NCBI GenBank assembly: GCA_052326585.1
Contig: JBKQLU010000044.1
Location: 9,299-73,298, forward strand
Reading direction: 5' to 3'
DNA: 64,000 nucleotides
DNA from: Desulfobaccales bacterium
GTDB taxonomy: Bacteria > Desulfobacterota > Desulfobaccia > Desulfobaccales > 0-14-0-80-60-11
Both the position numbers and the translations under genes were made by a program. The notes beneath the pieces were generated by a model. The model did not search any database, was not told the DNA's origin, and saw nothing but the letters and a program-made list of their open reading frames with translations. This document shows positions 11,778-54,885 of this stretch, one piece after another. Each line of letters opens with the position of its first letter. The first letter of the stretch is position 1.

Positions 11778-12096
11778 AAAGCCCCTGATCGCCTAAGCTG
11801 ATCAGGAGCCATTAGTGTCATCACGGTTCGGGCAGATTATCCTTCGCCCCGGCGGACTCCATCGCCTAATCTGGGGATAATTTAACCCCGGTCCCCAGCC
11901 CGGTCAAGGAAAATGTACCATAATTCACAATCACCCCTCTTTTAGGGTTGACATCCTGGCCCTATTGAAGGAATAATCTATCCTGCGACGGCGATGAAGT
12001 CCGCCTGAACTGTTCGCGGTAGCCCGCGGGCTGATGACTTCTGCTCTCATTTAAGGGGCAGAAGTTTTTTTATGCTGCTCATGACCGGGAGAAGGT

Positions 12097-22278: not shown

Positions 22279-23730
22279 TTAGAATTCTGCGTGCAGCCGC
22301 AGGCCAAAGACCGATACCGGACCACGATCCTGGTTGTAAGCCGGGTTGATAATCAACTGGTAGTCCGCGGTGATGTTCAGTGTGCCGTTGCCTGTTCCTG
22401 CATGTACCAATGTTAGCGGCGAGGCGAATTTGAGCACGGCGATATTGTAATACGTTTCGAATACTAGTTCAGGTGAGGCATGCGTCAATTCGCCGTCGCC
22501 GATAATCCCGCCGAGACCACCGGCTCCGAAATATTGCCTGGCCGGGTTCGAAATTTGGTTGACTGCAAATGCCAACCCAACGTTATCATCGGGGCGGCAC
22601 CAGTGAGATCCTTTCAACGACAACCCACCCGAAACAGAGACGTTTACGTCGGTGAAGTCGACCTCCTCCACGCCGCCCTGGCACCAGCCTCCCCGGAGGA
22701 ACATACCAAGATCGGGAACAAGTTGCTGTTCGAGATTAAACCCAATACCGTATTTGGTGCGAAATCTGCGCACCGCTTCGACATCGGGCGTCAGGCCGGT
22801 TTCGCCACCCCAAGCTAGCGCATCGTTATAAGAGGCAAGATTGCCACCAGTCAGGAAATACAGGACCTTGAACTTGCCGGGCTGATCCCATAGTGTATGC
22901 CTCTCTTCTAATTCCGCACAGAACTGCCCTTGCGAGAAACCCCTGGTGCTGAGATGTATGCTGTTCGGGGTGCTCGACATGTCGAACAGACCGACCCTGG
23001 CGGTCCACCAATCCTGTTGCCATTCGGCCGCGGCTCCGTAGGTGAAGCCCCAGGCGTCCGCCGCATAGTCGAAGGCACCCAGGTCGACGATCGTCCAGTT
23101 GAGGAAGTCGCCGCGAGGATCGTGGGCATATTTGTTGGTATCGAAGATGTCGACCACGGAGAACTTACCAATGGTCATCACCAGATGGTTGGCGGTCTGG
23201 GTGCCACCCAAGACATTCGCATCAGGGTCAACTTTTTCAGTCTCGCCGCTCAAATTGATCGTCTGACGGAAGAAGGCCCGGTCCAATCTGAAGTACGGAG
23301 TGGTTCTGCCGAGCTTGTAGGCTTCGCCGCTGGGGTATCCCGCCACCCCGAAAGTGTCGCTTAGACCGAAGCCCTGGTCCATAGTTGGATTGGCCCAGAG
23401 TTCGGCGCCCTGCCACGGGCGTAACCCGAGATAGGCCGTTATATCAGTAGTCTCCCTGCCATTGGCTTTAGGATAAAGGCTATGCGGCCCTACTTTAAAA
23501 TAGGGGGAATAGAATGCCGGCTGCAATTCCCAGGTGACCGTGGACTGACCGTGTATGGCCCAGATCTCCGGCACCACTTGCTCGGCTTCTTTAGAAGTGA
23601 CTGGTGTGCCTTGGGGTGATGGCGTCGGGCTAGTCATTTGAGCATGGCATAACCACGGACAGAGAAGGCTGGCGGCCGCTACAACGCCTATCAAGAACAT
23701 TGCCGCTCTTCTGCAATGTATGAAACTCAT
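22279..23730 (-). CDS. Outer-membrane porin, OprB (carbohydrate-selective porin) family
   Basis: 483 aa with a signal peptide and a C-terminal ...GLRLHAEF. Blocks such as GDFLNWTIVDLGAFDYAADAWGFTYGAAAEWQQDWWTARVGLFDMS resemble OprB-family porins. Confidence 0.6.
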   Translation of the reverse strand: MSFIHCRRAAMFLIGVVAAASLLCPWLCHAQMTSPTPSPQGTPVTSKEAEQVVPEIWAIHGQSTVTWELQPAFYSPYFKVGPHSLYPKANGRETTDITAYLGLRPWQGAELWANPTMDQGFGLSDTFGVAGYPSGEAYKLGRTTPYFRLDRAFFRQTINLSGETEKVDPDANVLGGTQTANHLVMTIGKFSVVDIFDTNKYAHDPRGDFLNWTIVDLGAFDYAADAWGFTYGAAAEWQQDWWTARVGLFDMSSTPNSIHLSTRGFSQGQFCAELEERHTLWDQPGKFKVLYFLTGGNLASYNDALAWGGETGLTPDVEAVRRFRTKYGIGFNLEQQLVPDLGMFLRGGWCQGGVEEVDFTDVNVSVSGGLSLKGSHWCRPDDNVGLAFAVNQISNPARQYFGAGGLGGIIGDGELTHASPELVFETYYNIAVLKFASPLTLVHAGTGNGTLNITADYQLIINPAYNQDRGPVSVFGLRLHAEF

Positions 23731-23831
23731 GTTTCCCCCCTTTTAGATGGACGGCCAAAAAAAGGCCACGGAAACCCTGTAAATTCACTTCAAGCGATTT
23801 TGGTCCTATTTTTATCTCATCGGAGCTGCTA

Positions 23832-23859
23832 TTGACATCGACAAAAGCCTGGTTATAAT
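23832..23859 (+). promoter_or_regulatory. Near-consensus sigma70 promoter (TTGACA, 16 nt, TATAAT) for the His-rich peptide gene
   Basis: Hexamers read directly from the sequence, 36 nt upstream of the ATG. Confidence 0.65.
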
Positions 23860-23894
23860 ATATTGAAAATATAGTAAAAAGGAGGTGATACCGT

Positions 23895-24056
23895 ATGTGC
23901 TGTAACAACAAAGATAAACATGAGCACGAACACGCCCATGGGGTCGAGACCCATGCCCACGACGGCCACGAGCATAGGCATGAGGCCATCGTCCATAGCC
24001 ATGAGCATACCCACGACGAGGGCCATCACAGCCACGAGCATAAGTGCTGCCAATAA
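23895..24056 (+). CDS. 53-aa histidine/cysteine-rich metal-binding peptide (Hpn-like)
   Basis: My own translation gives MCCNNKDKHEHEHAHGVETHAHDGHEHRHEAIVHSHEHTHDEGHHSHEHKCCQ*. It has 21 His and a CC pair at each end. Strong RBS (AAAAGGAGGTGATACCGT-ATG), a consensus promoter upstream and a terminator immediately downstream. It is below the 60-aa cut-off of the ORF track. Confidence 0.7.
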   Translation: MCCNNKDKHEHEHAHGVETHAHDGHEHRHEAIVHSHEHTHDEGHHSHEHKCCQ

Positions 24057-24057
24057 C

Positions 24058-24146
24058 GGAAAGCCACGGGTCCGCGGAAAATTAGGCCACGAAGGCTTTA
24101 TCTGGTCTGAAGACCGGAGGAGCGTTCGTGGCTTTCCCTTTTTTCT
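24058..24146 (+). terminator. Long two-tier hairpin plus U-tract terminator. It belongs to the GCCAYGAAGG...CRTGGCTTT element family.
   Basis: The outer stem GGAAAGCCACG/CGTGGCTTTCC encloses GGCCACGAAGG and an inner GGTC-tgaa-GACC hairpin, followed by CTTTTTTC. Confidence 0.65.
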
Positions 24147-24155
24147 TTCCATTCC

Positions 24156-24413
24156 CTATCCGCTAAGTCGAACCAAAGGGTGAATAGGCCGCAAATACTT
24201 TTGGTCAGTTTGCGCCACCAAGATTTTGATATCCGCATAACCCTTGGTGAACAGGTGATGCCAGGCATCGTTCACCTCGAAGAATCCTTGACTTGAGCCC
24301 ACCAGTTCCACTCGATCGGCCGGGAAGCCCATTTCCTTACAGCAGCTTGCCAGATCAAAATTCTCCGGCAACTCTGCGCCACCCACCAGATAGACGATCA
24401 GCCCGCTCCTCAT
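24156..24413 (-). CDS. Small conserved hypothetical protein, paralog 1 (85 aa), last gene of the cbi operon
   Basis: RBS GGAGGTGAT-ATG at 24413. The sequence is MRSGLIVYLVGGAELPENFD...FFEVNDAWHHLF...ILVAQTDQKYLRPIHPLVRLSG*. It is collinear with the protein at 28274-28588. I moved the start relative to the ORF track. Confidence 0.6.
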   Translation of the reverse strand: MRSGLIVYLVGGAELPENFDLASCCKEMGFPADRVELVGSSQGFFEVNDAWHHLFTKGYADIKILVAQTDQKYLRPIHPLVRLSG

Positions 24414-24523: not shown

Positions 24524-25309
24524 TTATCGGCCCTGATTCCAGTCAGGTATCACCTCCAGGGCATTGATGATGTGCTCTTGGAAAATTTTAATTACTCCCG
24601 GGTAATGCAGCAGGCCGGTGGGATCCAGGGTGACGGTCAGGCCGGCCTCTTGCAGAGCGGTTTGCCAGGAATTTTCCGGCCCGGCCAGATCTATCTTGAA
24701 ATGACGCCCCGCCACCATCATGAGGGGCAGCAACCGTATCCGCTTCAGGCCGGATTTGACCACCCGGGCGATGACCTCTTGCCGGGAAGGGGGGCCTTCC
24801 AGGACGCCGATGTGGACCTGGTGGCCGAACCGCCCGGATAACAGGTATTGCAGTGCCAGGTACGTGGCCCAACTGGGGTGATCGCTGCCATGTCCCACCA
24901 AGATGATGGCCTCCTCGCTCCCTAGGGCGTCCAGTTTAGGGGCCAGCGCTTCCAGAAAAGCACCATAATCCTCTGGAGCCCACAAGAGTGGTAGCCCCAT
25001 GGCCGTCCGTATCCCGCAGGCATGCACCTCTTCCACCAGGCGATAAAATTCGTGCCCGGCCATGAGATGCAAGGCCTGCACCACCGCCCATTCAAAACCC
25101 CGGGCCTGCAATTCCTCCAGTAGTTCTCCCGGACCTTTCCACTTCCGCCCCCGGCGCTGTTGGTCAAAGTCCCGCACCATACGGGAAGAGAAGGCCCAAT
25201 GAACTTCATGTGCAGGGAAGGCTGTCCGGATGTGTGTATCCAGGTAAGTATAAGACTGCCGGGCTGAGGTGGTGGTGCCGAAGGCTACCAGAACTATGGG
25301 GACTTTCAT
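24524..25309 (-). CDS. cbiK: Sirohydrochlorin cobaltochelatase (anaerobic cobalt chelatase CbiK)
   Basis: 261 aa: MKVPIVLVAFGTT..., later ILVGHGSDHP and LLPLMMVAGRHF blocks typical of CbiK. Confidence 0.8.
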   Translation of the reverse strand: MKVPIVLVAFGTTTSARQSYTYLDTHIRTAFPAHEVHWAFSSRMVRDFDQQRRGRKWKGPGELLEELQARGFEWAVVQALHLMAGHEFYRLVEEVHACGIRTAMGLPLLWAPEDYGAFLEALAPKLDALGSEEAIILVGHGSDHPSWATYLALQYLLSGRFGHQVHIGVLEGPPSRQEVIARVVKSGLKRIRLLPLMMVAGRHFKIDLAGPENSWQTALQEAGLTVTLDPTGLLHYPGVIKIFQEHIINALEVIPDWNQGR

Positions 25310-25384
25310 GATTTCATCTCTATGATCATTTTATTCCCGGCCTTCGGGCATCACATCTTTTATTAACATTCTAATTTCAAACAC

Positions 25385-26260
25385 CTAACCATTGTTGTCC
25401 AGATTCCGTTTCGTCTTGCCTGGGCCATTTATAAAGCAGACTTCTTCCAGCACATGCCTTGCCTGTCCGATGGTGAGCGGAAGGCGTTCCGCTTCCAGAC
25501 AGCCTTGCTTCCTGAGTATTTCAATCAAATGGGCAACCCTGGGCAGCCGCAGGCCGATCTTTCGGATAATATCCTTCTGGGCGAACACCTCCGCCGTGCT
25601 ACCCGAAAGGATGATTTCTCCTGCATTCATCAGATAAACCCGATCCGCCAACAGTGGGATGATATCTGCATCGTGGGAAGAGAATATCAGCGTGATGCCC
25701 ATTTCCTTGTTGATTTTGTTGAGCAGCCCCACGAGACTGCTTGCGCCTTGGGGATCAAGCGCGGCAGTTGGCTCATCCAATACGAGTACGTCGGGCTTCA
25801 TGGCAAGAACGCTGGCCAGAGCGACTCTTTTCTTCTCCCCCTGGCTCAGATTGAGCGGGCTCTTCTCGCTGTAGCCACATATGCCCACGGCCTCGAGAGC
25901 CCAATTGACCGCATGGTCCAGCTCCTTTCCGGTGACCTGCATATTCATTAGCCCATAGGCCACTTCCTGGCGCACGCTTGCATTGAAAAGCTGGTCATCC
26001 GGATCCTGGAAAACCATCCCGACCTTGGCGCGTATCCGATATAAGTTCTTTTTTTCAACCAACAGTCCGTCAACATAAACCCTGCCGGAGGAGGCCAGTA
26101 AAAGGCCATTAAAGGTGTTAAACAGCGTAGATTTTCCTGCACCGTTCGGTCCAATCACCGCAATCCGTTCGCCTCTTTCGATTTTCAGGCTCACTTGACG
26201 GAGTGCTACGAATCCGCCCGCATATGTGTAGCAAACCTCCTGGACATCGATAAGGCTCAT
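25385..26260 (-). CDS. cbiO: Cobalt ECF/ABC transporter ATP-binding protein CbiO
   Basis: Walker A GPNGAGKST, signature LSQGEKKRV, Walker B VLVLDEP. Operon position is after cbiQ. Confidence 0.85.
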   Translation of the reverse strand: MSLIDVQEVCYTYAGGFVALRQVSLKIERGERIAVIGPNGAGKSTLFNTFNGLLLASSGRVYVDGLLVEKKNLYRIRAKVGMVFQDPDDQLFNASVRQEVAYGLMNMQVTGKELDHAVNWALEAVGICGYSEKSPLNLSQGEKKRVALASVLAMKPDVLVLDEPTAALDPQGASSLVGLLNKINKEMGITLIFSSHDADIIPLLADRVYLMNAGEIILSGSTAEVFAQKDIIRKIGLRLPRVAHLIEILRKQGCLEAERLPLTIGQARHVLEEVCFINGPGKTKRNLDNNG

Positions 26261-26274
26261 TGCTGTTTCCTCTC

Positions 26275-27054
26275 CTAAACCAAATAGTTCATTGTCAGAA
26301 CCAAGAGCGGAAAGGCAGTCAAAAGCAGGCCCAGGCGCAAATCCGGGGAGGGAACCGGCCCCGTAAAATAGGCCGGAACCATAATCTCCTCACTGTAGCC
26401 CCGCGAGACCATGGCATGGTATATTTTTGTGCTGCGGTCCAGGGATTTTGTCAGGACATGTATGGCGATGTTTCCGACATTACGGATCCGCTCCATCCAA
26501 GAGAGCCTGCGAAATGTCCTGCACATCTGGGCATGGCGCATATTGCGAGCCACTTCAGCCATGATGAAAACATAGCGGAACATCATGTCTGCAATATCTA
26601 CTATGATGCCCGGAAGCTTGAAGATGCGCAAAGTCTCCAGGATCTCCACCATGGGCGTGCTGCATGAAAGCACGCAGGCCATCGTCACCGCCGCCATAAT
26701 CCGCAGCATAATCAATATGCCGCGCCAGATACCCTCGGAATAGATCACCAAAGGAAAAGGCTTCGTGAGCAAGGTCGCCAGCGGATGGCTGCCATTGGTA
26801 AAGAGCAGGGTAAGGAAAACCAGCCAGGCGACTCCGAAGGGGATGAACAAACGTAGAGCCAGGAGGCGCCAGGGTAGACGCAACGTAGAGAATATGGCAA
26901 TGGCAGCCACCCATAAGGCGGCTGCCAAATACCAGTGTCTTACAACCGCGGCAACAATAATGGCAACCAGGAAAAACACGGTCTTCACACGCCCGTCTAG
27001 GCGCCGCAATGGCGTGTCCAGAATACCGACCGATTTGAAAAAATCTAGATCCAT
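26275..27054 (-). CDS. cbiQ: Cobalt ECF transporter transmembrane component CbiQ
   Basis: 259-aa membrane ORF between cbiN and cbiO. N-terminal LD.R.K pattern (RRLDGRVKTVFF). Confidence 0.8.
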   Translation of the reverse strand: MDLDFFKSVGILDTPLRRLDGRVKTVFFLVAIIVAAVVRHWYLAAALWVAAIAIFSTLRLPWRLLALRLFIPFGVAWLVFLTLLFTNGSHPLATLLTKPFPLVIYSEGIWRGILIMLRIMAAVTMACVLSCSTPMVEILETLRIFKLPGIIVDIADMMFRYVFIMAEVARNMRHAQMCRTFRRLSWMERIRNVGNIAIHVLTKSLDRSTKIYHAMVSRGYSEEIMVPAYFTGPVPSPDLRLGLLLTAFPLLVLTMNYLV

Positions 27055-27059
27055 CGTTA

Positions 27060-27425
27060 TTACATACCTTTGTCCTGCGGTGTTTCCTCTTTCCCGGCAT
27101 TTTTACCGAAGAGCACGGTCCACTGGTGCCCCACAATTATTCCTACGAAGAAATTGGCGATGGAAAAAGCTCCGACCTCGGCGTCCCCCGGAAGCTCAAC
27201 GAACGGATGAGATTTGCTGCCGGCGATCTCGGATGCCATGGCATTGACTTTATCGTCGGTGCCGTTGCCTTCCATCTTGTGACTGGCCATGTACTTGCCG
27301 GATATGAATATGCCTGTCAGGAAAATGAACATCACCAGTAGCATCACTTTAGAGAAGCTGTCAAACCAGTCAACGGCAGGTTTCTGGGTCTTCATCGTTT
27401 CAGCGGGCATACTAGCTCCTTTCAA
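27060..27425 (-). CDS. cbiN: Cobalt transport protein CbiN
   Basis: Small two-TM protein with GTDDK...EI...ELPGDAEVGAFS between the TMs. It overlaps the cbiM stop. The start is uncertain. Confidence 0.65.
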   Translation of the reverse strand: MKGASMPAETMKTQKPAVDWFDSFSKVMLLVMFIFLTGIFISGKYMASHKMEGNGTDDKVNAMASEIAGSKSHPFVELPGDAEVGAFSIANFFVGIIVGHQWTVLFGKNAGKEETPQDKGM

Positions 27426-28095
27426 TTATTGCTTTTTCGCTCTCCATCAAGACGCCGGGGATCAGATCCGGGCGCCTGGCGACCATCACCTGAACCACCA
27501 CCGCGGTGAATATCGCCTCCACAATTGCCAAAGGAAGCTGTGTAGGGCCGTAGCCCATAAAGAATATCAGCCACTGCTTAATTAGCGGCACATTCCCGTG
27601 AAGGCTGATGGCAAGCTGCAAAGCACTGACCAGATAAGTGGCAAGGTCACCGAAGAATCCAGCCAAACCCGCCGCCAGCCAAATCGGGGAACCAAACATC
27701 CTGAAGAGTTTCCAGATAAAGAAGCCGATAAACGTACCCGCAATTCCCATCGAAACGGTATTGGCGCCGATCGTCGTTATCCCGCCATGTCCAAGAAATA
27801 TCGCCTGGAAAAATAGGACGATGGCGGAAATAACAACTGTGGCGAAGGGGCCTACGATAATCGCAGCCAGCGGAGTACCGCAGGGATGAGAGCACGATCC
27901 GGTCACGGGTACTGGCAGGTGCATTGCCGAAATCACGAACACGGCTACTCCCACCATGGCGAGAAACGGCTTATAATACAAATTTTCCTTAACCCTTTTT
28001 TTGATTTCCATGACACCGGGCACAATCATTGCTGCTGTGGCGGCATACCAAACGGCACACGCCTGCGCAGTTAAGATGCCATCTTCAATATGCAT
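27412..28095 (-). CDS. cbiM: Cobalt/nickel ECF transporter substrate-capture component CbiM
   Basis: Begins MHIEDGIL (the metal-ligating MHIxEG N-terminus of CbiM/NikM). 227 aa, polytopic. RBS AAAGGAGGAGCAAA-ATG. Confidence 0.85.
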   Translation of the reverse strand: MHIEDGILTAQACAVWYAATAAMIVPGVMEIKKRVKENLYYKPFLAMVGVAVFVISAMHLPVPVTGSCSHPCGTPLAAIIVGPFATVVISAIVLFFQAIFLGHGGITTIGANTVSMGIAGTFIGFFIWKLFRMFGSPIWLAAGLAGFFGDLATYLVSALQLAISLHGNVPLIKQWLIFFMGYGPTQLPLAIVEAIFTAVVVQVMVARRPDLIPGVLMESEKAIIERS

Positions 28096-28273
28096 TTTGC
28101 TCCTCCTTTTCCATCCTCATTTTTAGCAGGAATTTCCACGCCCGCTAGTACAAGAGGAAGGTTTTGTAAAACTTAGTTATGACCATTTTGCCGGCATGAC
28201 TGTCCTTGCGCAAGTTGCCCCAATCTGGACTGCCATGCTCCACTAGCACCACCGCAAAAGAGAGCTTTTTTGC

Positions 28274-28588
28274 TCAATGCAGCACCCTTCCATGCAAGCA
28301 AGCGCCTGATGGGTCTTCCGCCACCCGAGCCACGCCCGTAAGGCGCACCGATGGACAAATGAGGCGCAGATGGTCGTGCTCCGGCGTGGTTACCAAAAGG
28401 TGGATCGATTCGCATCCCAGCCTCAACAGGAAATGCCAGGCATCATCCAATTCCAGGACTCCAGGCTGTGAGACCACAACTTCCATGGGGCCTGTAGGTA
28501 GGCTGAGCCCCTGATACCGGGTCCCGGCTTTCAGGCCATCCGGCGGTTCCCCGCCCAGTAAAAAAATTATTACTCCTTGTGTCATCAT
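28274..28588 (-). CDS. Small conserved hypothetical protein, paralog 2 (104 aa), first gene after the cobalamin riboswitch
   Basis: RBS GGAGGGC-ATGATG at 28588. The sequence is MMTQGVIIFLLGGEPPDG...VLELDDAWHFLL...HLLVTTPEHDHLRLICPSVRLTG..., collinear with 24156-24413. The ORF-track N-terminal extension would run through the riboswitch terminator, so I moved the start. Confidence 0.6.
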   Translation of the reverse strand: MMTQGVIIFLLGGEPPDGLKAGTRYQGLSLPTGPMEVVVSQPGVLELDDAWHFLLRLGCESIHLLVTTPEHDHLRLICPSVRLTGVARVAEDPSGACLHGRVLH

Positions 28589-28647
28589 GCCCTCCACGAT
28601 AGTGAGATAAGGGAGCCCGAGGCACTCCGAGGCATGATCCACCCGGA

Positions 28648-28946
28648 CAAAAAAAAACCTTGGGCCCGTGTGGACCCAAGGATTGCACCCAGTTTGCTTG
28701 ATCCCTGGCTGGCTGAGGAGATTTGCCATCTCTCCGCAGCCACTGCCCTCCCAATGCCTCGTTGGGGCAACAGTTCAGCTTACAGGCAGGTCTTCTGATT
28801 CCCGGATCTTTCTATTCCCTGCGCCTTCCCGTCCTCTTAAGAAAGGATAGTGGCTCTGTGCAGGTTTCGTCCCCGGTTACAGCGGCGGGACCACGCCGGT
28901 TTTACACCGGCTTCCCTTTTAAGCCCCGAAGGGCGCCTGTATGCTC
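28648..28946 (-). promoter_or_regulatory. Cobalamin (AdoCbl) riboswitch with terminator expression platform
   Basis: The minus strand reads ...AAAAGGGAAGCCGGTGTAAAACCGGCGTGGTCCCGCCGCTGTAACCGGGGACGAAA...GAGCCACTATCC...GGACGGGAAGGCGC...AATCAGAAGACCTGCCTG (B12 box). It is followed by CCTTGGGTCCACACGGGCCCAAGG plus T9 (28648-28681). Confidence 0.85.
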
Positions 28947-28957
28947 AATTTTATTGC

Positions 28958-29231: not shown

Positions 29232-31463
29232 TCAAAAGTGGGCGGTCAGCGCGAGACGGAAAGTGCGCGGCTCTGCTGCATGATACGTGAAGTCGTTGAC
29301 GCCTTGGGCCGGCTCCCCCGGCAGCCGGTTGGCGTAATAGTAGGTGATATCGGGGGCTTTCGTATTGAGAAGGTTAAAGATATCTCCTTCGATCTCCCAG
29401 GTCGGGTTGATTTTGTAAATGAGGTTAAAGTAGAGCAGAGTGGTATTGCGGGACCATTCGCTGCCGTCCTGGACGAGAGGGCGGGGGCCGAAATAGCGCA
29501 ACCGCAGGGTGGAGGTAAAACCGTAGATATCGTGCACCGTGACTCCCGAGTTGATAATCATGCCCGCGGCCTCGGGGACGTAACCTCCTCCGACGGGGTG
29601 TCCGCGGTAAAATGCCTGGGATTGGGCAAAATCGGCATCGATCGTCAGCCACTTCGTCGGTGTGTAATAGTTCGCCCACTCTACGCCATAGCGGCGACTG
29701 GGGCCAGTCGCTTCGGTCGTTCCCGTATCTCCGTCGAACACCAGTTCGGAATCGAGGTCGAGCACCCAACACGTCACCGTGCTTTGCAGGTTCGGGATGG
29801 CAAGCGTGCGCACGCCGACCTCGCCTCCTTGCGAGCGCGGCAGCGGCTTGGCCCTGCTCAGCTGGAGGCCGGTGGTCGGATCGAGGGTGGTGTTCGCGCC
29901 GCGCGCGTCGTTGGAGTGGAAGCCTTGGCCGGCGTTGAGATAGAACTCCGTCTGGTCCCAGGGGCCGAAGATCGCGGAAAGTTTCGGCTCCGGGACCGTG
30001 GCCAAGACAGTGCCGCTATTGTTGGAAAGGTAGGTTTCGTTACGCATCATGTAGAAGTCCTGGCGATAGCCCGCAACGGTGCGAAACCACGGAAGCCATT
30101 GTATCTTGTTCTCGAAGTAGGGCGCGGCGCTGGGTTCCTCAACATTGTCGACCCGGACGACGCTGATCACCTCGCGGTTCATGGTGTGAAAAAGACCGTC
30201 GTGGATTATGTCGTCGCGAATGTCGAGCCCGAGGGTGTTTTGCATGGGAAAGTTGCCCCAATTGCCGAACCAGGTGCGGGTGGCTTTGAGTCCCTGCACC
30301 CAGCGGGTGTCCCTTTGCTCGAACTGGTCCCCATGGACAGGATCATTCAAGAAAAAGGTGAAATCATTCCAGAGACCCATATTGTAATAATAAGCATATG
30401 CCATGATTTTAGTCGCGGAGTTATTACCGGTCTGGTGCCATTCACCCTCCAGGGTATAGCGGTCCGTAAAACCTCCGTCCGTCGGGGAGAGGTTTCCGAA
30501 ACGCGAGACGAGCCCTTCCGCCACGGCGCGCTCAGGTATCTGGTTGGTCGCAGTCCACGTGGGGGCGTTATAGCCCATGGCGGTCACGCTAAAGCCCTCG
30601 CTCTTGGTCCCTTGGCTATAGGTCATTACTCCATTGTACTTCATATAATTTTCGGGGGTTACCCATGGCCCGTCGGTGTGCACTGTTTCCAGGGCAAAGA
30701 GGAGGTTGCCCGGCCCGAGCTTCACCGAGTCGGCCAGCAACCCCCGCTCGTAGTTCCAGCTTCCGTATTCGACTTTGGCAATCCCGGTGGGAAGCGTCTT
30801 AAAGTAGTCAATGAATACAGAGCCCGCGGAGCCGAAGTCGCCCACGTTTGCGAAGTAGGGTCCTTTCTGGTAGTCAATTTTCTGGATCAATTCAGGGATG
30901 AGAAAGTTGAGATCCGTGTACCCTTGTCCATGGGCGTTCGTGGGCAGGTTGATGGGAACCCCGTTGACAAAGACGGCTATGTCGGTGCCGTGGTCGAGGT
31001 TAAAGCCCCGCAGGAAGTACTGGTTGGCCTTGCCGTCAGCGCTATGCTGGGTGACGATGAGTCCGGGCACGGTCTCGAGGACCTCTCCGGGCCGCGAGAT
31101 GGGGAGCTGTTGTATTTCTTTGGAGCCAACCGTGCCCTGCGATGAGCTATCAGCAATGCCGAGCATACTGGTGCTGCGCTCCTCCACCAATATCTCGGGC
31201 AATTGCTCTGTGCCTTTTGGGAGCTGGCCAATTTCATAGGTAAAAGCCCCTGCGGCCGGCGCCCCGCCGGAGGTGCCCGCACCGGACGTTTGGGCTGGGT
31301 TCTTGGGGACCTGGCCCGCCTTAGCGGGAGAGGTCACCGCAGGGACAGTTTGCTCCGACACGTCCCCGGCGCTGGGGGTTCCAGCTTCCTCCGCAGCCCA
31401 GGCACAGGCACTCAGGGCTATCCAAACCATGCAAGTACAAATAAGAGATGCTGCCCTTGCCAT
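29232..31463 (-). CDS. TonB-dependent outer-membrane receptor
   Basis: 743 aa with a signal peptide, a plug region (GEVLETVPGLIVTQHSADGKANQYFLRGFNLDHGTD), a long beta-barrel and a terminal ...RLALTAHF. Confidence 0.85.
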   Translation of the reverse strand: MARAASLICTCMVWIALSACAWAAEEAGTPSAGDVSEQTVPAVTSPAKAGQVPKNPAQTSGAGTSGGAPAAGAFTYEIGQLPKGTEQLPEILVEERSTSMLGIADSSSQGTVGSKEIQQLPISRPGEVLETVPGLIVTQHSADGKANQYFLRGFNLDHGTDIAVFVNGVPINLPTNAHGQGYTDLNFLIPELIQKIDYQKGPYFANVGDFGSAGSVFIDYFKTLPTGIAKVEYGSWNYERGLLADSVKLGPGNLLFALETVHTDGPWVTPENYMKYNGVMTYSQGTKSEGFSVTAMGYNAPTWTATNQIPERAVAEGLVSRFGNLSPTDGGFTDRYTLEGEWHQTGNNSATKIMAYAYYYNMGLWNDFTFFLNDPVHGDQFEQRDTRWVQGLKATRTWFGNWGNFPMQNTLGLDIRDDIIHDGLFHTMNREVISVVRVDNVEEPSAAPYFENKIQWLPWFRTVAGYRQDFYMMRNETYLSNNSGTVLATVPEPKLSAIFGPWDQTEFYLNAGQGFHSNDARGANTTLDPTTGLQLSRAKPLPRSQGGEVGVRTLAIPNLQSTVTCWVLDLDSELVFDGDTGTTEATGPSRRYGVEWANYYTPTKWLTIDADFAQSQAFYRGHPVGGGYVPEAAGMIINSGVTVHDIYGFTSTLRLRYFGPRPLVQDGSEWSRNTTLLYFNLIYKINPTWEIEGDIFNLLNTKAPDITYYYANRLPGEPAQGVNDFTYHAAEPRTFRLALTAHF

Positions 31464-31645
31464 AAATTCCTCCTTTCAGGTCCTTGGAACTCCAGCCACC
31501 CCAGGAAAAGAAAAGCCACGAAAATCAGGCGGCGTTCTGCCGCGGACCTTCGTGGCCACTCAAAACCTGTCTACGATCTTTTCTATTCGGGCAGACTTCC
31601 TGCCCCCCCGACAATTTTTAGTTTACTTAAGCGTCTTTAAGAAGT
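31450..31645 (-). repeat. Tandem repeat unit 1 (proximal). It carries the receptor leader with hairpin plus U-tract, the RBS, the ATG and the first 4-5 codons.
   Basis: Period 196 nt. GCTGCCCTTGCCATAAATTCCTCC recurs at 31450 and 31646. Homology runs to about 31610 in this unit and about 31808 in the other. Confidence 0.85.
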
Positions 31646-31808
31646 GCTGCCCTTGCCATAAATTCCTCCTTCCGGCTCCTGGAACTCAGGCCACCACAGG
31701 AAAAAAAAGCCACGAAAATCAGGCGGCGTTCTGCCGCTGGACCTTCGTGGCCACTGAAAACCTGTTGGCTATCTCTTCTTTGCGGGCGGACTTCGTGCCC
31801 CCCGATAA
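31646..31808 (-). repeat. Tandem repeat unit 2 (distal). It duplicates the leader, RBS and start codon, giving a 10-codon ORF MARAALLKDA*.
   Basis: Aligned by eye with unit 1. It begins at the predicted transcription start. Confidence 0.85.
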
Positions 31809-31817
31809 GTTGCCGGT

Positions 31818-31846
31818 TATATAGCGCCTTACTGAAATGTTGTCAA
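31818..31846 (-). promoter_or_regulatory. Sigma70 promoter of the TonB-dependent receptor (TTGACA, 17 nt, TATATA on the minus strand)
   Basis: Hexamers read directly from the sequence. Confidence 0.55.
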
Positions 31847-31947: not shown

Positions 31948-32012
31948 TTTTGCCATTCAGGGAGATTGAACTCCCTGAAGATCGAACTAACCAGCGCAAT
32001 AAAGTAAATCCA

Positions 32013-32065
32013 AGCCATGAAGGCTCAATGGTCCGGAAGGACCGCAGCCGCATGGCTTTTTTTTT
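32013..32065 (+). terminator. Leader hairpin plus U9 (attenuator-like) immediately upstream of the exbB RBS
   Basis: AGCCATGAAGGCTCAATGGTCCGGAAGGACCGCAGCCGCATGGCT plus TTTTTTTTT, then AGGGAGG and ATG at 32077. Confidence 0.55.
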
Positions 32066-32076
32066 AGGGAGGATAC

Positions 32077-32772
32077 ATGGACATAACCAAGGCCCTGCTC
32101 AATTTGGCCCAGGGCGGGAGCGCGTGGGTGCTGTGGCTGCTCCTGGGATTGAGCGTCGCCTCAGTGGCGATCATCATCGACAAGGCCCTGACCTTTTACC
32201 GCTGCCGCTTTGACCCGGACCGCTTTGTGGCCGAGATCGAACCTGCTTTCAAGCAAGGCGACTGGCCCCAGGCCGTTTCCCGCTGCCAGGCTGAATCCGG
32301 TTTGGAAGGCCGGGTGCTATTGGCGGGCCTCAACGAGATTCCTTGGGGCAAAAGTGCGGTCCAGGACATCATGGAAGGCGAGCGGCTCAGGATGGTCCTC
32401 TTCCTGGAGCGGCGCTTGAGCTTCCTGGGCACCCTGGGAGCCAACGCCCCCTTCATCGGCCTATTCGGCACCGTCCTGGGCATCATCCATGCCTTCAAGG
32501 ACCTGTCCCTCACCGAGGGGGGCGGCGGCCCGGCAGTGATGGCCGGCATCGCCGAGGCACTGGTAGCCACTGCGGTGGGTCTCCTGGTGGCCATCCCCGC
32601 GGTGATGATGTACAACTTCTTTCATCGCCGCCTGCACGTGGTCCAGGAGCGTTCCCGGTTTCTCGAGCAGTTGCTCCTGGCCCATCTGGACCGTGACGCC
32701 GGGACCGGGGAGATTGCCCTCCCGGATACCGAACAGTCCAAACCTGCCGGCCAGGCCGGGAAGCTGGCATGA
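32077..32772 (+). CDS. exbB: MotA/TolQ/ExbB proton-channel protein
   Basis: 231 aa with conserved LGTLGANAPFIGLFGTVLGII and GIAEALVATAVGL blocks. Confidence 0.85.
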   Translation: MDITKALLNLAQGGSAWVLWLLLGLSVASVAIIIDKALTFYRCRFDPDRFVAEIEPAFKQGDWPQAVSRCQAESGLEGRVLLAGLNEIPWGKSAVQDIMEGERLRMVLFLERRLSFLGTLGANAPFIGLFGTVLGIIHAFKDLSLTEGGGGPAVMAGIAEALVATAVGLLVAIPAVMMYNFFHRRLHVVQERSRFLEQLLLAHLDRDAGTGEIALPDTEQSKPAGQAGKLA

Positions 32773-43480: not shown

Positions 43481-43577
43481 CCCTGAAAAAGCCAAACCCG
43501 TCGCGAGGCGGGGACGGAAAGCCACGGGTCTCAGAAAGATAGCCGGGTTGCCTGGAAAAGGGGAGTCCGGTTTTTTT
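43481..43577 (+). promoter_or_regulatory. c-di-GMP-I (GEMM-I) riboswitch, copy 1, with overlapping terminator
   Basis: GCCAAACCCGTC-GCGA-GGCGGGGACGGAAAGCCACGGGTCTC...AGCCGGGTTGCC. The 3' arm CCGGGTT can instead pair with AGTCCGG, which is followed by T7. Confidence 0.8.
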
Positions 43578-50148: not shown

Positions 50149-51543
50149 ATGGTCCAGCGCTGTTTGATCGTTGCTGATGACCTGACCGGCGGGGCGGACA
50201 CAGGGGTCCAATTCTCCCAAAGAGGTCCCCGAACATTTTTTCTAATATCTGCAAACCTCACCAATCTCGATTTCCCCAAATACAGCCACAGTGACATCCT
50301 GGTCGTCAACACCGGTTCAAGAGGCCTGCGGCCCGGGAAGGCCTTCTCGGCTGTGGCGTCCGTCATGAGCACTTACGACAAGGCACTCTTCCCCATCATC
50401 TACAAGAAGATAGATTCGACCCTCAGAGGAAACATCGGGTATGAAATCGACGCCATACTGGAGAAAACGGGAATTCCAATGGCCTTCGTTGCTCCATCCC
50501 TGCCCGAGCAGAACCGGACCCTGGTCGGGGGCATCATGATGGTCGCCGGAAAGCCCGTCGCCTTGACGGAAATGGCCTGTGATGCTGTTTCTCCTGTCAG
50601 GGAGTCCCATATTTGCACGCTGATCCAGCGGCAATCCCGCCATCGCGTGGCCTTGATCGAACTCACCCAGGTGGCATCGGGTTGCAGACAGCTTAAGCAA
50701 GCCGTGCTGAAAGAAAAGAAAAAGGGGGCTCAGATCATCATCTTCGATGCAACCAGGCGCGCTGACCTGGCCCATGTTGCTGAAGTGGCCTTCAATTTGG
50801 ACAGGGTTCCCTTGCTCGTCGGTTCTGCCGGGCTGGGCGAGGAAGTGGCAAAGCAGATATGCTCGTCAGCCCAGGGCGGCTTCTTGCCATCTTGTGCGCC
50901 GGCAAAAGGGCCTTTCAGCCATTTTTTCATCATCAGCGGCAGCGCCTCCAGCGTCACTCACCAGCAACTGGAAGAGCTCGAAAAGAGCCTGGGGATCAGG
51001 TCCTTCGAGTTGGATCGATCCATTCTTTTGAGTGATAACTACAAAAGAGAAGAATACCAGAAGGACCTCTGCGGCCAGATAGCAGAGACACTCAGGCAAG
51101 GCCACGCTATCCTCAAGGTCTATTGCGGCGGGATTTCTGCAAGCGGTCCCCTTCGTCCTCCCATTCACGTCCGCATTACCCGTTTGTTGGGTTCCATTGC
51201 GTCGGCGGTGCTCCAACAATTTGCGGAAACCCTCAACGTGGATGGGCTGGCAGTGGTTTTGACCGGTGGCGAAACCGCGCTAAGCGTCCTGAATTCCCTT
51301 GGGGTCAAAGGGGTTGAAATCGATCGTGAACTAATAGGCGGGGTCGTGATAAGCAGAGTGCAGGATGGGATGATGGCAGGCCTTGCCGTGATTACCAAAG
51401 CCGGGGCCTTTGGAGCGAAGGACACACTGGAAAAAATCATAGAGATTGTCGGGACCGGACCTCACCGAGGGAATGCTTCGGGAGAAATGAGTAGTGAGGG
51501 GGTCTCCCGCACAATCGTAACGCCAGGGAGGATCGTTCTATGA
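50149..51543 (+). CDS. Four-carbon acid sugar kinase family protein (DUF1537; OtnK/DtnK-like)
   Basis: MVQRCLIVADDLTGGADTGVQF..., YKKIDSTLRGNIG, and the C-terminal nucleotide-binding half (LTGGETA). I chose the start at 50149. Confidence 0.8.
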   Translation: MVQRCLIVADDLTGGADTGVQFSQRGPRTFFLISANLTNLDFPKYSHSDILVVNTGSRGLRPGKAFSAVASVMSTYDKALFPIIYKKIDSTLRGNIGYEIDAILEKTGIPMAFVAPSLPEQNRTLVGGIMMVAGKPVALTEMACDAVSPVRESHICTLIQRQSRHRVALIELTQVASGCRQLKQAVLKEKKKGAQIIIFDATRRADLAHVAEVAFNLDRVPLLVGSAGLGEEVAKQICSSAQGGFLPSCAPAKGPFSHFFIISGSASSVTHQQLEELEKSLGIRSFELDRSILLSDNYKREEYQKDLCGQIAETLRQGHAILKVYCGGISASGPLRPPIHVRITRLLGSIASAVLQQFAETLNVDGLAVVLTGGETALSVLNSLGVKGVEIDRELIGGVVISRVQDGMMAGLAVITKAGAFGAKDTLEKIIEIVGTGPHRGNASGEMSSEGVSRTIVTPGRIVL

Positions 51544-52814
51544 CGCACCAGCACATCTTACTTCCGTACGGGAAAAAAACGGTCAAAGTGGCCATCCCCT
51601 CGGATAATCTGCTGGGAGTCTATTCCCCAAAGGACATTCCGGCCGTTGCGGACGTGAAGGGTGAAATCGTGCGGGCGCTGGCCCAGCCGATCCAATCCGA
51701 TTCATTGCGGGAGCTCGTCGCGGGGAAGAGAAAGGTGGTGATCGTAGCTGATGACAATACCCGATGCACGCCCGCGGATATCATCACGCCCCTTCTCCTG
51801 GACGAGTTCAATGCAGCAGGCGTCCCAGACGCCAATATTTCGATCGTCATCGCTCTCGGAACCCATCGGTTCATGACCGCGGAGGAGATTGTCCAAAAGT
51901 TCGGCAAGGAGGCCGTAAGCCGGGTGGCCATTAAGAATCACCCCTTTAGAGACCCCGGGGCCCATGTCGACGTTGGCACAACCGAAAACGGAGGAAGAAT
52001 CCAGGTCAATCGGGAAGTCTTTGAAGCTGACTTCAAAATTGGCATTGGCAGCATCGTACCGCATCATATCTGTGGCTTTTCAGGCGGAGCCAAAATCATC
52101 CAGCCAGGGGTCTCCGGCGAATCAACCACTGCCTATACGCACCTGCTCTCCGTCCGCGCCCCGCGTTCCTATCTGGGCATTCTGGACAATCCCGTGCGCA
52201 CGGAGATGGACGCTATTGCCCGCAGAGTAGGTCTCCACACCATACTGAACACGGTTCTGAACCGCCATGGACAGGTGGTCGGGGCCTTTTTCGGCGATGT
52301 GGAAGCAGCCTTTCGCGCCGGCGTCAAGCAGGCCTTGGCAATCTACGCGGTTGAGCTTCCTCAAGAAGCCGACGTGGTTCTTGCCAGCTCTTATCCTTGC
52401 GACCTCGATTTCTGGCAGGCGCACAAGACCCAGTATCCATCGGACCTGGCGGTCAAAGCGGGGGGCATCGTCATCATTCTCACCCCCTGTCAGGAAGGCA
52501 TCTCTCAGATTCACCGCGACATCCTCGATATCACCTGTCATTCCTCGACTCGGCTCCGAGACCTGGTTGCCTCCGGGCAGCTTGGCGATGAAGTGGCGGC
52601 GGCACTGGCAATCGCCTGGGCTCAGGTGAAAGAGCGCGAAGAGGTATTTTTCGTCTCGGATGGCATCTCAGCCTTGGAAGCGGGCAAACTGGGATTCACA
52701 CCCTTTGCGGACGTCCAATTGGCAGTCGATGAAGCACTGAAACGTATGGGGCCTGATGCCAAGGTGGCGGTCCTGACACATGCGCCGGATATGTTGCCAG
52801 TAATCAGACCCTAA
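51540..52814 (+). CDS. LarA-family (nickel-pincer cofactor dependent) 2-hydroxyacid racemase/epimerase homolog
   Basis: 424 aa: VVIVADDNTRCTP, ALGTHR, IVPHHICGFSGGAKIIQPG (with the Lys of GGxK present). The ATGA overlap with the kinase stop indicates translational coupling. Confidence 0.8.
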   Translation: MTHQHILLPYGKKTVKVAIPSDNLLGVYSPKDIPAVADVKGEIVRALAQPIQSDSLRELVAGKRKVVIVADDNTRCTPADIITPLLLDEFNAAGVPDANISIVIALGTHRFMTAEEIVQKFGKEAVSRVAIKNHPFRDPGAHVDVGTTENGGRIQVNREVFEADFKIGIGSIVPHHICGFSGGAKIIQPGVSGESTTAYTHLLSVRAPRSYLGILDNPVRTEMDAIARRVGLHTILNTVLNRHGQVVGAFFGDVEAAFRAGVKQALAIYAVELPQEADVVLASSYPCDLDFWQAHKTQYPSDLAVKAGGIVIILTPCQEGISQIHRDILDITCHSSTRLRDLVASGQLGDEVAAALAIAWAQVKEREEVFFVSDGISALEAGKLGFTPFADVQLAVDEALKRMGPDAKVAVLTHAPDMLPVIRP

Positions 52815-54663: not shown

Positions 54664-54787
54664 CTTCCATGATCCTTGCCAGTTAGCTTAGCAAGCCTGT
54701 GGCAGATCTTTTATGATGAGCCTAATTTTTTGTTAAAATTTCATTCAAGAGGTTGACGGATTTAAACCTCATGCATATTGTAAATAT
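54664..54787 (+). repeat. Conserved upstream region of the riboswitch loci, copy 2
   Basis: CCTTGCCAGTTAGCTTAGCAAGCCTGTGGCAGATCTTTTATGATGAGC...TTGACG, 17 nt, TATTGT. Aligns with 43355-43480. Confidence 0.6.
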
Positions 54788-54885
54788 ACCGCAAGGCCAA
54801 ACCTGCCGCGAGGTAGGGGCGGAAAGCCACGGGTCTCCGATTAAAGAGATAGCCGGGTTGCCGGGAGGCAATCCGGTTTTTTTTT
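54788..54885 (+). promoter_or_regulatory. c-di-GMP-I (GEMM-I) riboswitch, copy 2, with overlapping terminator
   Basis: GGCCAAACCTGCC-GCGA-GGTAGGGGCGGAAAGCCACGGGTCTC...AGCCGGGTTGCC. CCGGGTTGCC (54853-62) can instead pair with GGCAATCCGG (54867-76), followed by T9. Confidence 0.8.

Follow-up and report, generated by a model that had tools for sequence, protein, structure and literature searches.

A conserved 53-residue histidine-rich peptide gene at candidate nickel and cobalt uptake loci of Desulfobaccales, and the RNA motif at its 3′ end

What does a stand-alone gene for a very small, histidine-rich peptide do beside an operon for cobalt uptake? The question arises from a 64,000-nucleotide stretch of a Desulfobaccales genome (contig JBKQLU010000044.1 of assembly GCA_052326585.1, positions 9,299 to 73,298; hereafter the window), in which an initial annotation had picked out a His/Cys-rich peptide gene between a porin gene and a B12-riboswitch-controlled cbi operon. 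Sequence comparison indicates that this 53-codon open reading frame (ORF) is a genuine, independently transcribed protein-coding gene. Its mRNA ends in a structured RNA element whose core recurs in leaders of metal-uptake operons. We think it likely, though well short of certain, that the peptide is a cytoplasmic Ni/Co buffer, store or hand-over chaperone, similar in kind to Hpn of Helicobacter but not homologous to it.

The peptide gene and its expression signals

The gene for the 53-amino-acid (aa) His/Cys-rich peptide (MCCNNKDKHEHEHAHGVETHAHDGHEHRHEAIVHSHEHTHDEGHHSHEHKCCQ) runs on the plus strand from its ATG at 23895 to 24056, with a TAA stop codon at 24054–24056. Promoter, ribosome-binding site (RBS), start codon and translation are exactly as first read. 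The sigma-70-type promoter (23832–23859, plus strand) consists of TTGACA (23832–23837), a 16-nt spacer and TATAAT (23854–23859); it agrees with the consensus at 12 of 12 positions and is the sole perfect match within the 2.5 kb scanned. An AT-rich 5′ untranslated region (UTR) without structure (23860–23876) precedes the RBS, AAAAGGAGGTGA (23877–23888, plus strand), which was located by sequence inspection and whose AAGGAGG is kept at all homologous loci. The translated peptide contains 17 His (32%) rather than the 21 originally counted, 11 Asp/Glu and 4 Cys, and the Cys-Cys pair described for each end lies at residues 2–3 and 51–52. No signal sequence was found in it. The ORF had been described as absent from the ORF track, which is true only above a certain length, as ORF 23895–24056 enters the mechanical list at a cut-off of 40 aa. 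Judged by these signals, the gene looks like a strongly expressed single-gene unit, and its expression is probably constitutive.

The same arrangement recurs elsewhere. In 33 of 34 loci with homologous genes, a TTGAC-like −35 box, a TAnAAT-type −10 box, an AT-rich 5′ UTR of ∼20 nt and AAGGAGG occupy a constant span of 58–67 nt before the ATG. Since the −35 box, −10 box, RBS, ORF length and 3′ hairpin are seen again at 34 other species-level genome loci and on ∼100 metagenome contigs, their combination is more than chance. A universal promoter operator was considered and rejected: the TATATT-GAA-AATATA palindrome 3′ of the −10 box is limited to the closest relatives, and the 5′ UTR of the remaining loci is merely AT-rich, with no operator common to all.

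A protein family under purifying selection

We scanned one genome per GTDB species with two peptide patterns and obtained 36 loci, all of them in metagenome-assembled genomes (MAGs) of Desulfobaccales/Desulfobaccia or of unclassified ‘delta proteobacteria’. The peptide is exactly 53 residues long in 34 of the 36 and follows the pattern MCC[HNQT]xK[DE]KHEHEHxHxxxxHxHDGHEHxHExxxHxHEHxHxxGHHxHxHxCC[HQK]. An independent metagenome sample, scanned by the pattern of the RNA 3′ element only (see below), gave 113 stretches. A His-rich ORF lies directly upstream of the element in 104 of these, exactly 53 aa long in 98 (81 distinct sequences); five other stretches are cut at contig ends, and three have no ORF. 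Sixteen of the 17 His and all four Cys are invariant over the 34 genome sequences, an apparent invariance that is partly by construction because these loci were found through peptide patterns, and that must to this extent be held against our interpretation; the metagenome set found through the RNA pattern offsets this ascertainment.

Several measures point to selection on the protein. The codons of the invariant residues alternate (CAT 329 versus CAC 309, and likewise TGC/TGT), and the mean pairwise difference among the 34 sequences is 0.14, 0.16 and 0.435 at codon positions 1, 2 and 3. The nonsynonymous and synonymous differences per site (pN and pS) are 0.145 and 0.78, the latter saturated, for a median dN/dS of 0.09. 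All 34 sequences have frame +1 open, with a mean amino-acid identity of 75%, and it is the only frame both open throughout and conserved; the others contain stops or are poorly conserved. The initial annotation had named conservation of an overlapping frame instead of this one as an observation that would speak against the gene. This is not what is seen: in many loci the two overlapping ORFs have open frames only because CAY-rich DNA contains no stops there, and the proteins they would encode are poorly conserved.

Annotation has almost wholly passed over this family: its profile found only seven matches among 5.8 billion proteins, each of them a truncated, frameshifted or variant form. Four relatives came out of an exhaustive phmmer search that covered 1.84 billion representative proteins. 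Two are 110-aa proteins whose N-terminus is 62–65% identical to the peptide, including non-His positions, and is followed by an HMA domain; the two others are truncated or frameshifted MCC... or ...KCCQ forms. Searches of Pfam, NCBIfam and PDB sequences with the peptide gave no match, nor did a single-sequence word-index protein search, and an exact protein-cluster look-up showed the sequence to be absent from that collection. The identical peptide is called on six NCBI metagenome contigs, which are comparatively uninformative because their DNA is 100% identical to the window. In the public-collection versions P0002 and P0004–P0009, which are truncated, chimeric or frameshifted, the His-rich text turns into a Thr/Pro/Met-rich alternative frame, which suggests that defective public versions reflect assembly or gene-calling errors in CAY-rich DNA. 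The literature, searched for the peptide motif and for His-rich proteins together with cbiMNQO, yielded no published account of the family.

Genomic context

The peptide gene keeps company with Ni/Co uptake genes. Locus ORFs were clustered and cluster representatives annotated for the context counts. At 30 of 34 loci, at least one of CbiM, CbiN/NikL-like, CbiQ, CbiO, CbiK, periplasmic DUF4198, an outer-membrane channel (Phenol_MetA_deg family) and a TonB-dependent receptor is encoded within ∼5.5 kb of it. The association with Ni/Co uptake and CbiK is conserved across the order. Gene order and orientation around the peptide gene vary among loci, an argument that the linkage is functional and not accidental.

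Two uptake systems recur in these neighbourhoods. The first is a B12-riboswitch unit with cbiK, with or without TIGR00123-type cbiMNQO, usually convergent with the peptide gene; a Cobalamin riboswitch precedes a convergent cbiK operon in the window and in 10 loci. The second comprises a NikL/DUF4198 or Cbi(MN) energy-coupling factor (ECF) importer with an outer-membrane channel or TonB receptor, has no B12 riboswitch and is often divergent from the peptide gene. This second system is preceded by the RNA leaders described below and probably serves nickel. Many of the CbiK genes that are convergent with the peptide gene and lie just downstream of it (L012, L018, L019, L022, L028, L030, L032 and L034) encode a signal-peptide-like hydrophobic N-terminus, which suggests a periplasmic type; the CbiK copies of the window, L007 and L008 start directly with MKVPIVL..., which suggests a cytoplasmic one.

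The system-2 uptake operons themselves contain paralogues of the His-rich module, in many cases immediately behind the DUF4198 gene. Among these are Cys-less forms of 52 aa (L013, 4797–4961; L038, 3109–3270), two-module forms of ∼97 aa (L036, 7469–7762; L039, 1240–1539; L040, 1698–2006, minus strand) and a 110-aa HMA-fused form directly after DUF4198 (L014, 871–1233). The HMA domain occurs only in the fused paralogues (P0001, P0003 and L014). Some paralogues have 3′ hairpins of related design (GGCCGCGAxCGCC...CGUUCGCGGCC). In addition, a UreE-like protein of a ‘Sangeribacter’ MAG (L042, 7377–8189) carries a long C-terminal tail of HSHEHTHDG repeats that resembles the repeat unit of the peptide.

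The window itself has the surroundings first described for it: porin, B12-riboswitch cbi operon with cbiK, and LarA homologue were all confirmed. The OprB-family porin gene lies at 22279–23730 (minus strand), and the LarA homologue at 51540–52814. The cbi operon (24524–28955, minus strand; Pfam and NCBIfam assignments) comprises cbiK, cbiO, cbiQ, cbiN, cbiM, a paralogue of an 85-aa family and the Cobalamin riboswitch (28768–28955, minus strand; Rfam RF00174, 114.5 bits). The last gene of the riboswitch operon, convergent to the peptide gene, encodes a conserved 85-aa protein with vicinal CC (24156–24413, minus strand), whose ORF ends ∼10 nt past the U-run of the peptide gene. This protein has 197 homologues, all ∼85 aa long, without a Pfam domain and nearly all unnamed or ‘hypothetical’; their named sources are Desulfobaccales/Deltaproteobacteria MAGs, and a gene of the family adjoins the peptide gene in 8 loci. 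The 85-aa paralogue (∼28274–28585, minus strand) shares 36% identity with the 24156–24413 protein; the pair are the first and last genes of the cbi operon. The 85-aa protein may be a partner of CbiK or of the peptide.

Two further kinds of riboswitch were seen in the window. Two divergent fluoride riboswitches lie side by side (11796–11875, minus strand; 11981–12050, plus strand), and two riboswitches of the cyclic di-GMP-I-GGC type lie at 43482–43556 and 54787–54866 (both plus strand), one of them preceding a gene for a DUF642/PEP-CTERM protein.

The 3′ RNA element of the peptide gene

The initial annotation had assigned the gene a long hairpin terminator. The hairpin and its U-run are confirmed, but they form a sequence-conserved structured element rather than an ordinary terminator. 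The segment 24050–24160 folds with −42.5 kcal/mol (z = −3.5; 0 of 200 shuffles as stable) and the U-run follows at 24139–24144. A stable G+C-rich hairpin followed by a U-run, the hallmark of an intrinsic terminator, is conserved in 35 sequences; a simple terminator scan did not report the plus-strand hairpin.

After the stop codon the family shows a constant order: UAA-C-GGAAAGCCACG (copy 1), a variable segment of ∼16–20 nt, AAGCCACGAAGGC (copy 2), the inner hairpin P3 (CCGGUC-UGAA-GACCGG), GCGUUCGUGGCUUUCC and the U-run. In the window, where all of these lie on the plus strand, copy 1 (GGAAAGCCACG, 24058–24068) starts 1 nt past the stop codon and can pair with the 3′ strand in place of copy 2. 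In ∼92% of 112 metagenome copies it lies within 0–2 nt of the stop codon, so near that a terminating ribosome would cover it. Copy 2 (AGGCCACGAAGGC, 24084–24096) is the 5′ strand of the terminator stem and holds the GCC-ACGAA-GGC core common to the uptake-operon leaders. P3 (UCUGGUC-UGAA-GACCGGA, 24101–24118) follows, and the 3′ strand GCGUUCGUGGCUUUCC with the U-run (24122–24145) completes the intrinsic terminator, which scores 105.9 bits with R1, a covariance model built only from peptide 3′ elements.

Both pairings are well kept: copy 1 pairs with 24127–24137 in 95% of cells (34 sequences), and copy 2 with the 3′ strand likewise in 95%. P3 has compensatory changes at four of its six pairs beneath a conserved UGAA loop. 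In L035 all three pairing segments have changed in concert, and in L013 copy 2 and the 3′ strand have changed together. Mean pairwise differences are 0.039 in copy 2, 0.07 in the P3 loop, 0.115 in copy 1 and 0.133 in the 3′ strand; those of the connecting segments are 0.47–0.59, and third codon positions give 0.435. Each locus has a single copy of the element, at the peptide gene, for which reason we rejected an origin as a repetitive extragenic palindromic (REP) or other repeat element. The likeness of the GCCAC/GUGGC stem to the tRNA-His acceptor stem was dropped as a post-hoc coincidence. In one metagenome stretch (L086) the promoter and ORF appear to have been deleted and the 3′ element and a divergent leader remain, and in two others (L099 and L107) the element is the terminator of an unrelated gene, without a peptide ORF.

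Candidate attenuator leaders of the uptake operons

The core GCC-ACGAA-GGC / UUCGUGGC of the 3′ element is shared with a second element found 5′ of uptake operons; within the loci, the 9-mer CCACGAAGG occurs almost only in this second element, before operons that have no B12 riboswitch. These leaders begin with a 5′ hairpin topped by GGG-AYGAA-CCC, whose lower stem covaries strongly (9–12 double changes per pair), continue with an A-rich linker of ∼40 nt and end in a long terminator with 5′ strand AAGCCACGAAGGC and 3′ strand UUUUCGUGGCUUUUUUU. They stand before genes for TonB-dependent receptors, exbB-exbD-tonB and outer-membrane-channel/ECF (NikL, DUF4198) operons, where the terminator reads AAGCCACGAAGGC...UUCGUGGCUUUUU; examples are L009 2614–2728 (minus strand), L012 7736–7850 (minus strand) and L011 4927–5041 (plus strand). 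Model R1 matches the uptake leaders with E-values of ∼1e-5 to 1e-2, which are rough. A stricter regular expression finds leaders in 20 of 35 genome loci and 27 of 113 metagenome loci and in none of 148 reversed-sequence controls. Searches of Rfam 15 with the 3′ element and the leaders gave nothing at the gathering threshold, the best sub-threshold matches being unrelated (E ≥ 0.27).

The window contains three such leaders. Two lie in tandem (31505–31619 and 31700–31814, minus strand) before a TonB-dependent receptor gene (29232–31463), each with the 5′ hairpin, the A-rich linker and GGCCACGAAGG...UUUUCGUGGCUUUU. The third (31952–32068, plus strand) precedes exbB (32077–32772) and has the variant AAGCCAUGAAGGC...GCAUGGCUUUUUUUUU, in which the change is compensated (GCCAUGAAGGC...GCAUGGC). 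At 31490–31830 (minus strand) the duplication takes in not only the receptor leader but also the RBS and the initial codons, which leaves a 10-codon ORF, MARAALLKDA*, between the copies; the receptor has MARAASLI... at its own N-terminus. A possible decayed leader, CAGGGUUUCCGUGGCCUUUUUUU, lies on the minus strand at 23762–23800, upstream of the porin gene; it looks like a leader-type terminator reduced to its 3′ half, with no 5′ strand.

How might these leaders work? In folds computed without the 3′ strand, a GCC-ACGAA-GGC mini-hairpin of the type of the 5′ hairpin can form within the 5′ strand of the terminator, although its pairs hardly vary and so lend no covariation support. We looked for a conserved antiterminator helix joining the leader linker to the terminator 5′ strand and did not find one. 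In having two hairpins with the same type of loop, the second (the putative GCC-ACGAA-GGC mini-hairpin) within the 5′ strand of a terminator, the leaders are similar to the targets of ANTAR proteins, in which the second hairpin is likewise embedded in the terminator and for which EutX is a decoy small RNA (sRNA) (PMC8934654). ANTAR targets, however, have dual hexaloops, in each of which position 1 is A and position 4 is G, and their linker is short; a 20-nt extension abolishes EutV action (PMC8934654). We rejected membership in this class, as the leaders have penta- or tetraloops (AYGAA, UGAA) and a linker of ∼40 nt, and no ANTAR protein was identified. No candidate for an RNA-binding regulator appeared among the window ORFs scanned. 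Because their loops and linker fall outside the ANTAR definition and no regulator was found, we treat the leaders as a previously undescribed candidate attenuator or riboswitch, and the 3′ element of the peptide gene, by its sequence, as a member of the same motif class.

A more far-reaching proposal can be put forward tentatively, as a possibility we would at present rather doubt than assume. The hairpin pair GGG-AYGAA-CCC and terminator-embedded GCC-ACGAA-GGC may represent a new class of conditional terminator, a riboswitch or a site of protein-dependent antitermination, that controls the Ni/Co uptake regulon of Desulfobaccales (TonB receptor, exbB-exbD-tonB, and outer-membrane channel with NikL/DUF4198 ECF importer). 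The highly expressed peptide mRNA would then be bifunctional: it would encode the buffer, and its 3′ element, with a fail-safe second 5′ strand, would be a decoy or co-regulated node like EutX/Rli55. As the 3′ end of the peptide mRNA carries the same motifs, it could titrate a factor as those decoys do. More generally, the 3′ element may serve regulated 3′-end formation, stabilise the mRNA or titrate a shared factor, and copy 1 may be a fail-safe strand of the terminator.

Function of the peptide

We read the peptide as a buffer or chaperone because of its composition and its lack of a signal peptide, because its ligand residues are conserved position by position, because the gene has strong expression signals and is linked to those for Ni/Co importers and CbiK, and because the same module is found fused to a metallochaperone domain. 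We propose the following course of events. The gene would be transcribed alone from its near-consensus promoter and translated from a strong RBS, and the transcript would be ended by the conserved structured 3′ element. An abundant cytoplasmic peptide of 6.2 kDa would bind several Ni(II) and/or Co(II) ions through its 17 His, 11 Asp/Glu and two terminal Cys-Cys pairs. It would receive metal entering through the neighbouring ECF importers (CbiMNQO or NikL-DUF4198 type) and TonB-dependent importers, keep free Ni/Co low, and supply CbiK and Ni enzymes. The shared RNA motif would probably couple the peptide mRNA to the uptake regulon, through 3′-end formation, stability or titration of a shared factor. 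In all of this we infer metal binding, the identity of the metal, the chaperone or storage role, the cytoplasmic location and the regulatory role of the 3′ element; that the peptide feeds CbiK, as first proposed, is a conjecture.

Which metal would it be? The neighbouring B12 riboswitch and CbiK argue for cobalt; the case for nickel, made by the NikL/DUF4198 neighbours and the shared RNA motif, is at least as strong. The 3′ RNA element and the usual divergent neighbour tie the peptide to the second uptake system at least as closely as to the B12-riboswitch cobalt operon. An N-terminal NH2-Cys-Cys-His is an amino-terminal Cu(II)- and Ni(II)-binding (ATCUN)-type site. Residue 4 is His in 30 of 34 sequences, and removal of Met1 would thus create such a Ni(II)/Cu(II) site.

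Several points weigh against this interpretation, besides the ascertainment mentioned above. Its support comes throughout from comparing sequences. Homology to any characterised metal-binding protein was not detectable in Pfam, NCBIfam, PDB or word-index searches or by BLASTP against Hpn. An AlphaFold2 model of the single peptide sequence is uninformative, with a predicted local distance difference test (pLDDT) score of 54. The window copy has N4 and Q53 instead of His4 and His53, and 4 of the 34 loci have no metal genes nearby, although two of these are short contigs, one with two leader-type elements. Finally, the Cys-Cys pairs, like the fusion to HMA, are compatible with Cu(I), Zn or Cd too.

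This last point leads to the best of the alternatives, that the peptide is a general buffer for thiophilic metals (Cu(I), Zn or Cd) or a chaperone module of the CopZ type, its terminal CC pairs replacing the CxxC site of the HMA-linked module. Vicinal cysteines are typical of metallothioneins, and P0001, P0003 and L014 (871–1233) carry a homologous His-rich N-terminus (62–65% identity, with non-His positions shared) fused to an HMA domain with its MxCxxC. Yet the HMA-fused copy of L014 itself lies inside a DUF4198/outer-membrane-channel uptake operon of the Ni/Co type, and it is CbiM, NikL, CbiK and B12 riboswitches that are linked to the peptide gene, no CopA, CsoR, Znu or Zur having been seen to adjoin it. 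We regard this alternative as rather unlikely.

The 17 His codons and the position of copy 1, maskable by a ribosome terminating 1 nt upstream, bring to mind a regulatory leader peptide, functionless in itself, in which a His-codon-rich ORF and attenuator would sense His-tRNA or a metal-bound nascent chain; two mutually exclusive helices do compete for one 3′ strand. However, both helices end at the U-run and hence both should terminate, and no conserved or co-directional downstream gene exists to be regulated, the next gene being convergent in the window and in at least 14 loci. Moreover, the length is fixed at 53 aa and the non-His residues (MCC, KDK, DG, E and CC) are subject to strong purifying selection. 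Compared with his-leader-type attenuators, the locus thus shares the alternative helices, but it lacks a conserved co-directional operon and its peptide is under purifying selection, which makes this explanation improbable.

Still less credit goes to a secreted ribosomal metallophore, loosely like a methanobactin precursor, that would scavenge Ni/Co in sulfidic habitats and be re-imported through the adjacent TonB receptor, channel and ECF importer. The composition is strongly chelating, and the gene adjoins TonB-dependent receptors, exbB-exbD-tonB, outer-membrane channels and periplasmic DUF4198 proteins; against this stand the absence of a signal peptide, the lack of a conserved exporter, protease or modification enzyme in the 34 loci, a length of 53 aa that is large for a metallophore, and paralogues fused to HMA domains of cytoplasmic type. 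That the locus is primarily an RNA gene, whose transcript and chiefly its conserved 3′ end acts as an sRNA or protein decoy with the ORF secondary, we consider the most improbable of all, since the ORF is clearly under protein-level selection, even though the 3′ core segments vary less (0.04–0.13) than synonymous sites (0.435), model R1 cross-matches the uptake leaders (E of 1e-5 to 1e-2) and L086, L099 and L107 have the element without the ORF. A dual-function mRNA is compatible with the Ni/Co buffer that we prefer; an RNA-only gene is not.

Relation to known metal-binding proteins

As a Ni/Co buffer, the peptide would find its closest parallel in Hpn and Hpn-2 of gastric Helicobacter. Like these, it is a small stand-alone peptide, probably cytoplasmic (53 aa, compared with 60 aa for Hpn), in which a very large share of the residues is His; it likewise has two Cys-Cys pairs and is transcribed from a promoter of its own. 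Hpn-type genes are often missed by annotation because overlapping longer ORFs are called (PMC4671568), a fate that the window peptide shares. The differences are nonetheless considerable. A BLASTP comparison with an Hpn sequence entered by hand aligned 11 residues with E = 0.067, which does not establish homology. The His residues alternate as H-x-H with acidic or small spacers, whereas Hpn has poly-His runs; the CC pairs stand at both termini, and the source is the phylum Thermodesulfobacteriota. Hpn is linked to urease, and the window peptide to ECF/TonB importers, CbiK and B12 riboswitches; no link to NikR was seen for it. By analogy, therefore, the family would be a new variant of the Hpn-type metal-buffer peptide in kind, without homology to Hpn.

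Other comparisons are more distant. The His-rich tails or extensions of the Ni/Co metallochaperones UreE, HypB, SlyD, CooJ, CbiX-long and CobW are likewise His/acidic low-complexity, metal-binding segments for Ni/Co insertion, but they are appended to folded domains, whereas the module described here is the whole protein and is conserved position by position. HMA metallochaperones (CopZ-like) with an N-terminal His-rich extension are closer, in that the extension is truly homologous (62–65% identity); the window peptide itself has no HMA domain (PF00403), and its MCC and CC[HQK] termini replace the CxxC fold. Assignment to the SmtA/BmtA-type metallothioneins was rejected, as the peptide has no Pfam or NCBIfam match and only 4 Cys.

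Implications

The shared RNA motif is the most novel element of the locus. It exposes a candidate leader/attenuator RNA before metal-uptake operons of the TonB and ECF types, and the peptide mRNA carries part of the sequence of this RNA again at its 3′ end. Peptide and RNA are both short, synthesizable and directly testable. The peptide adds an order-wide family of small, putatively metal-binding proteins that gene callers and protein databases have almost wholly missed. The CODH/ACS (carbon monoxide dehydrogenase/acetyl-CoA synthase), hydrogenases and corrinoid enzymes of sulfate reducers need much Ni and Co in sulfidic, metal-poor habitats. The family would provide these anaerobes with a candidate Hpn-like buffer tied directly to their importers.

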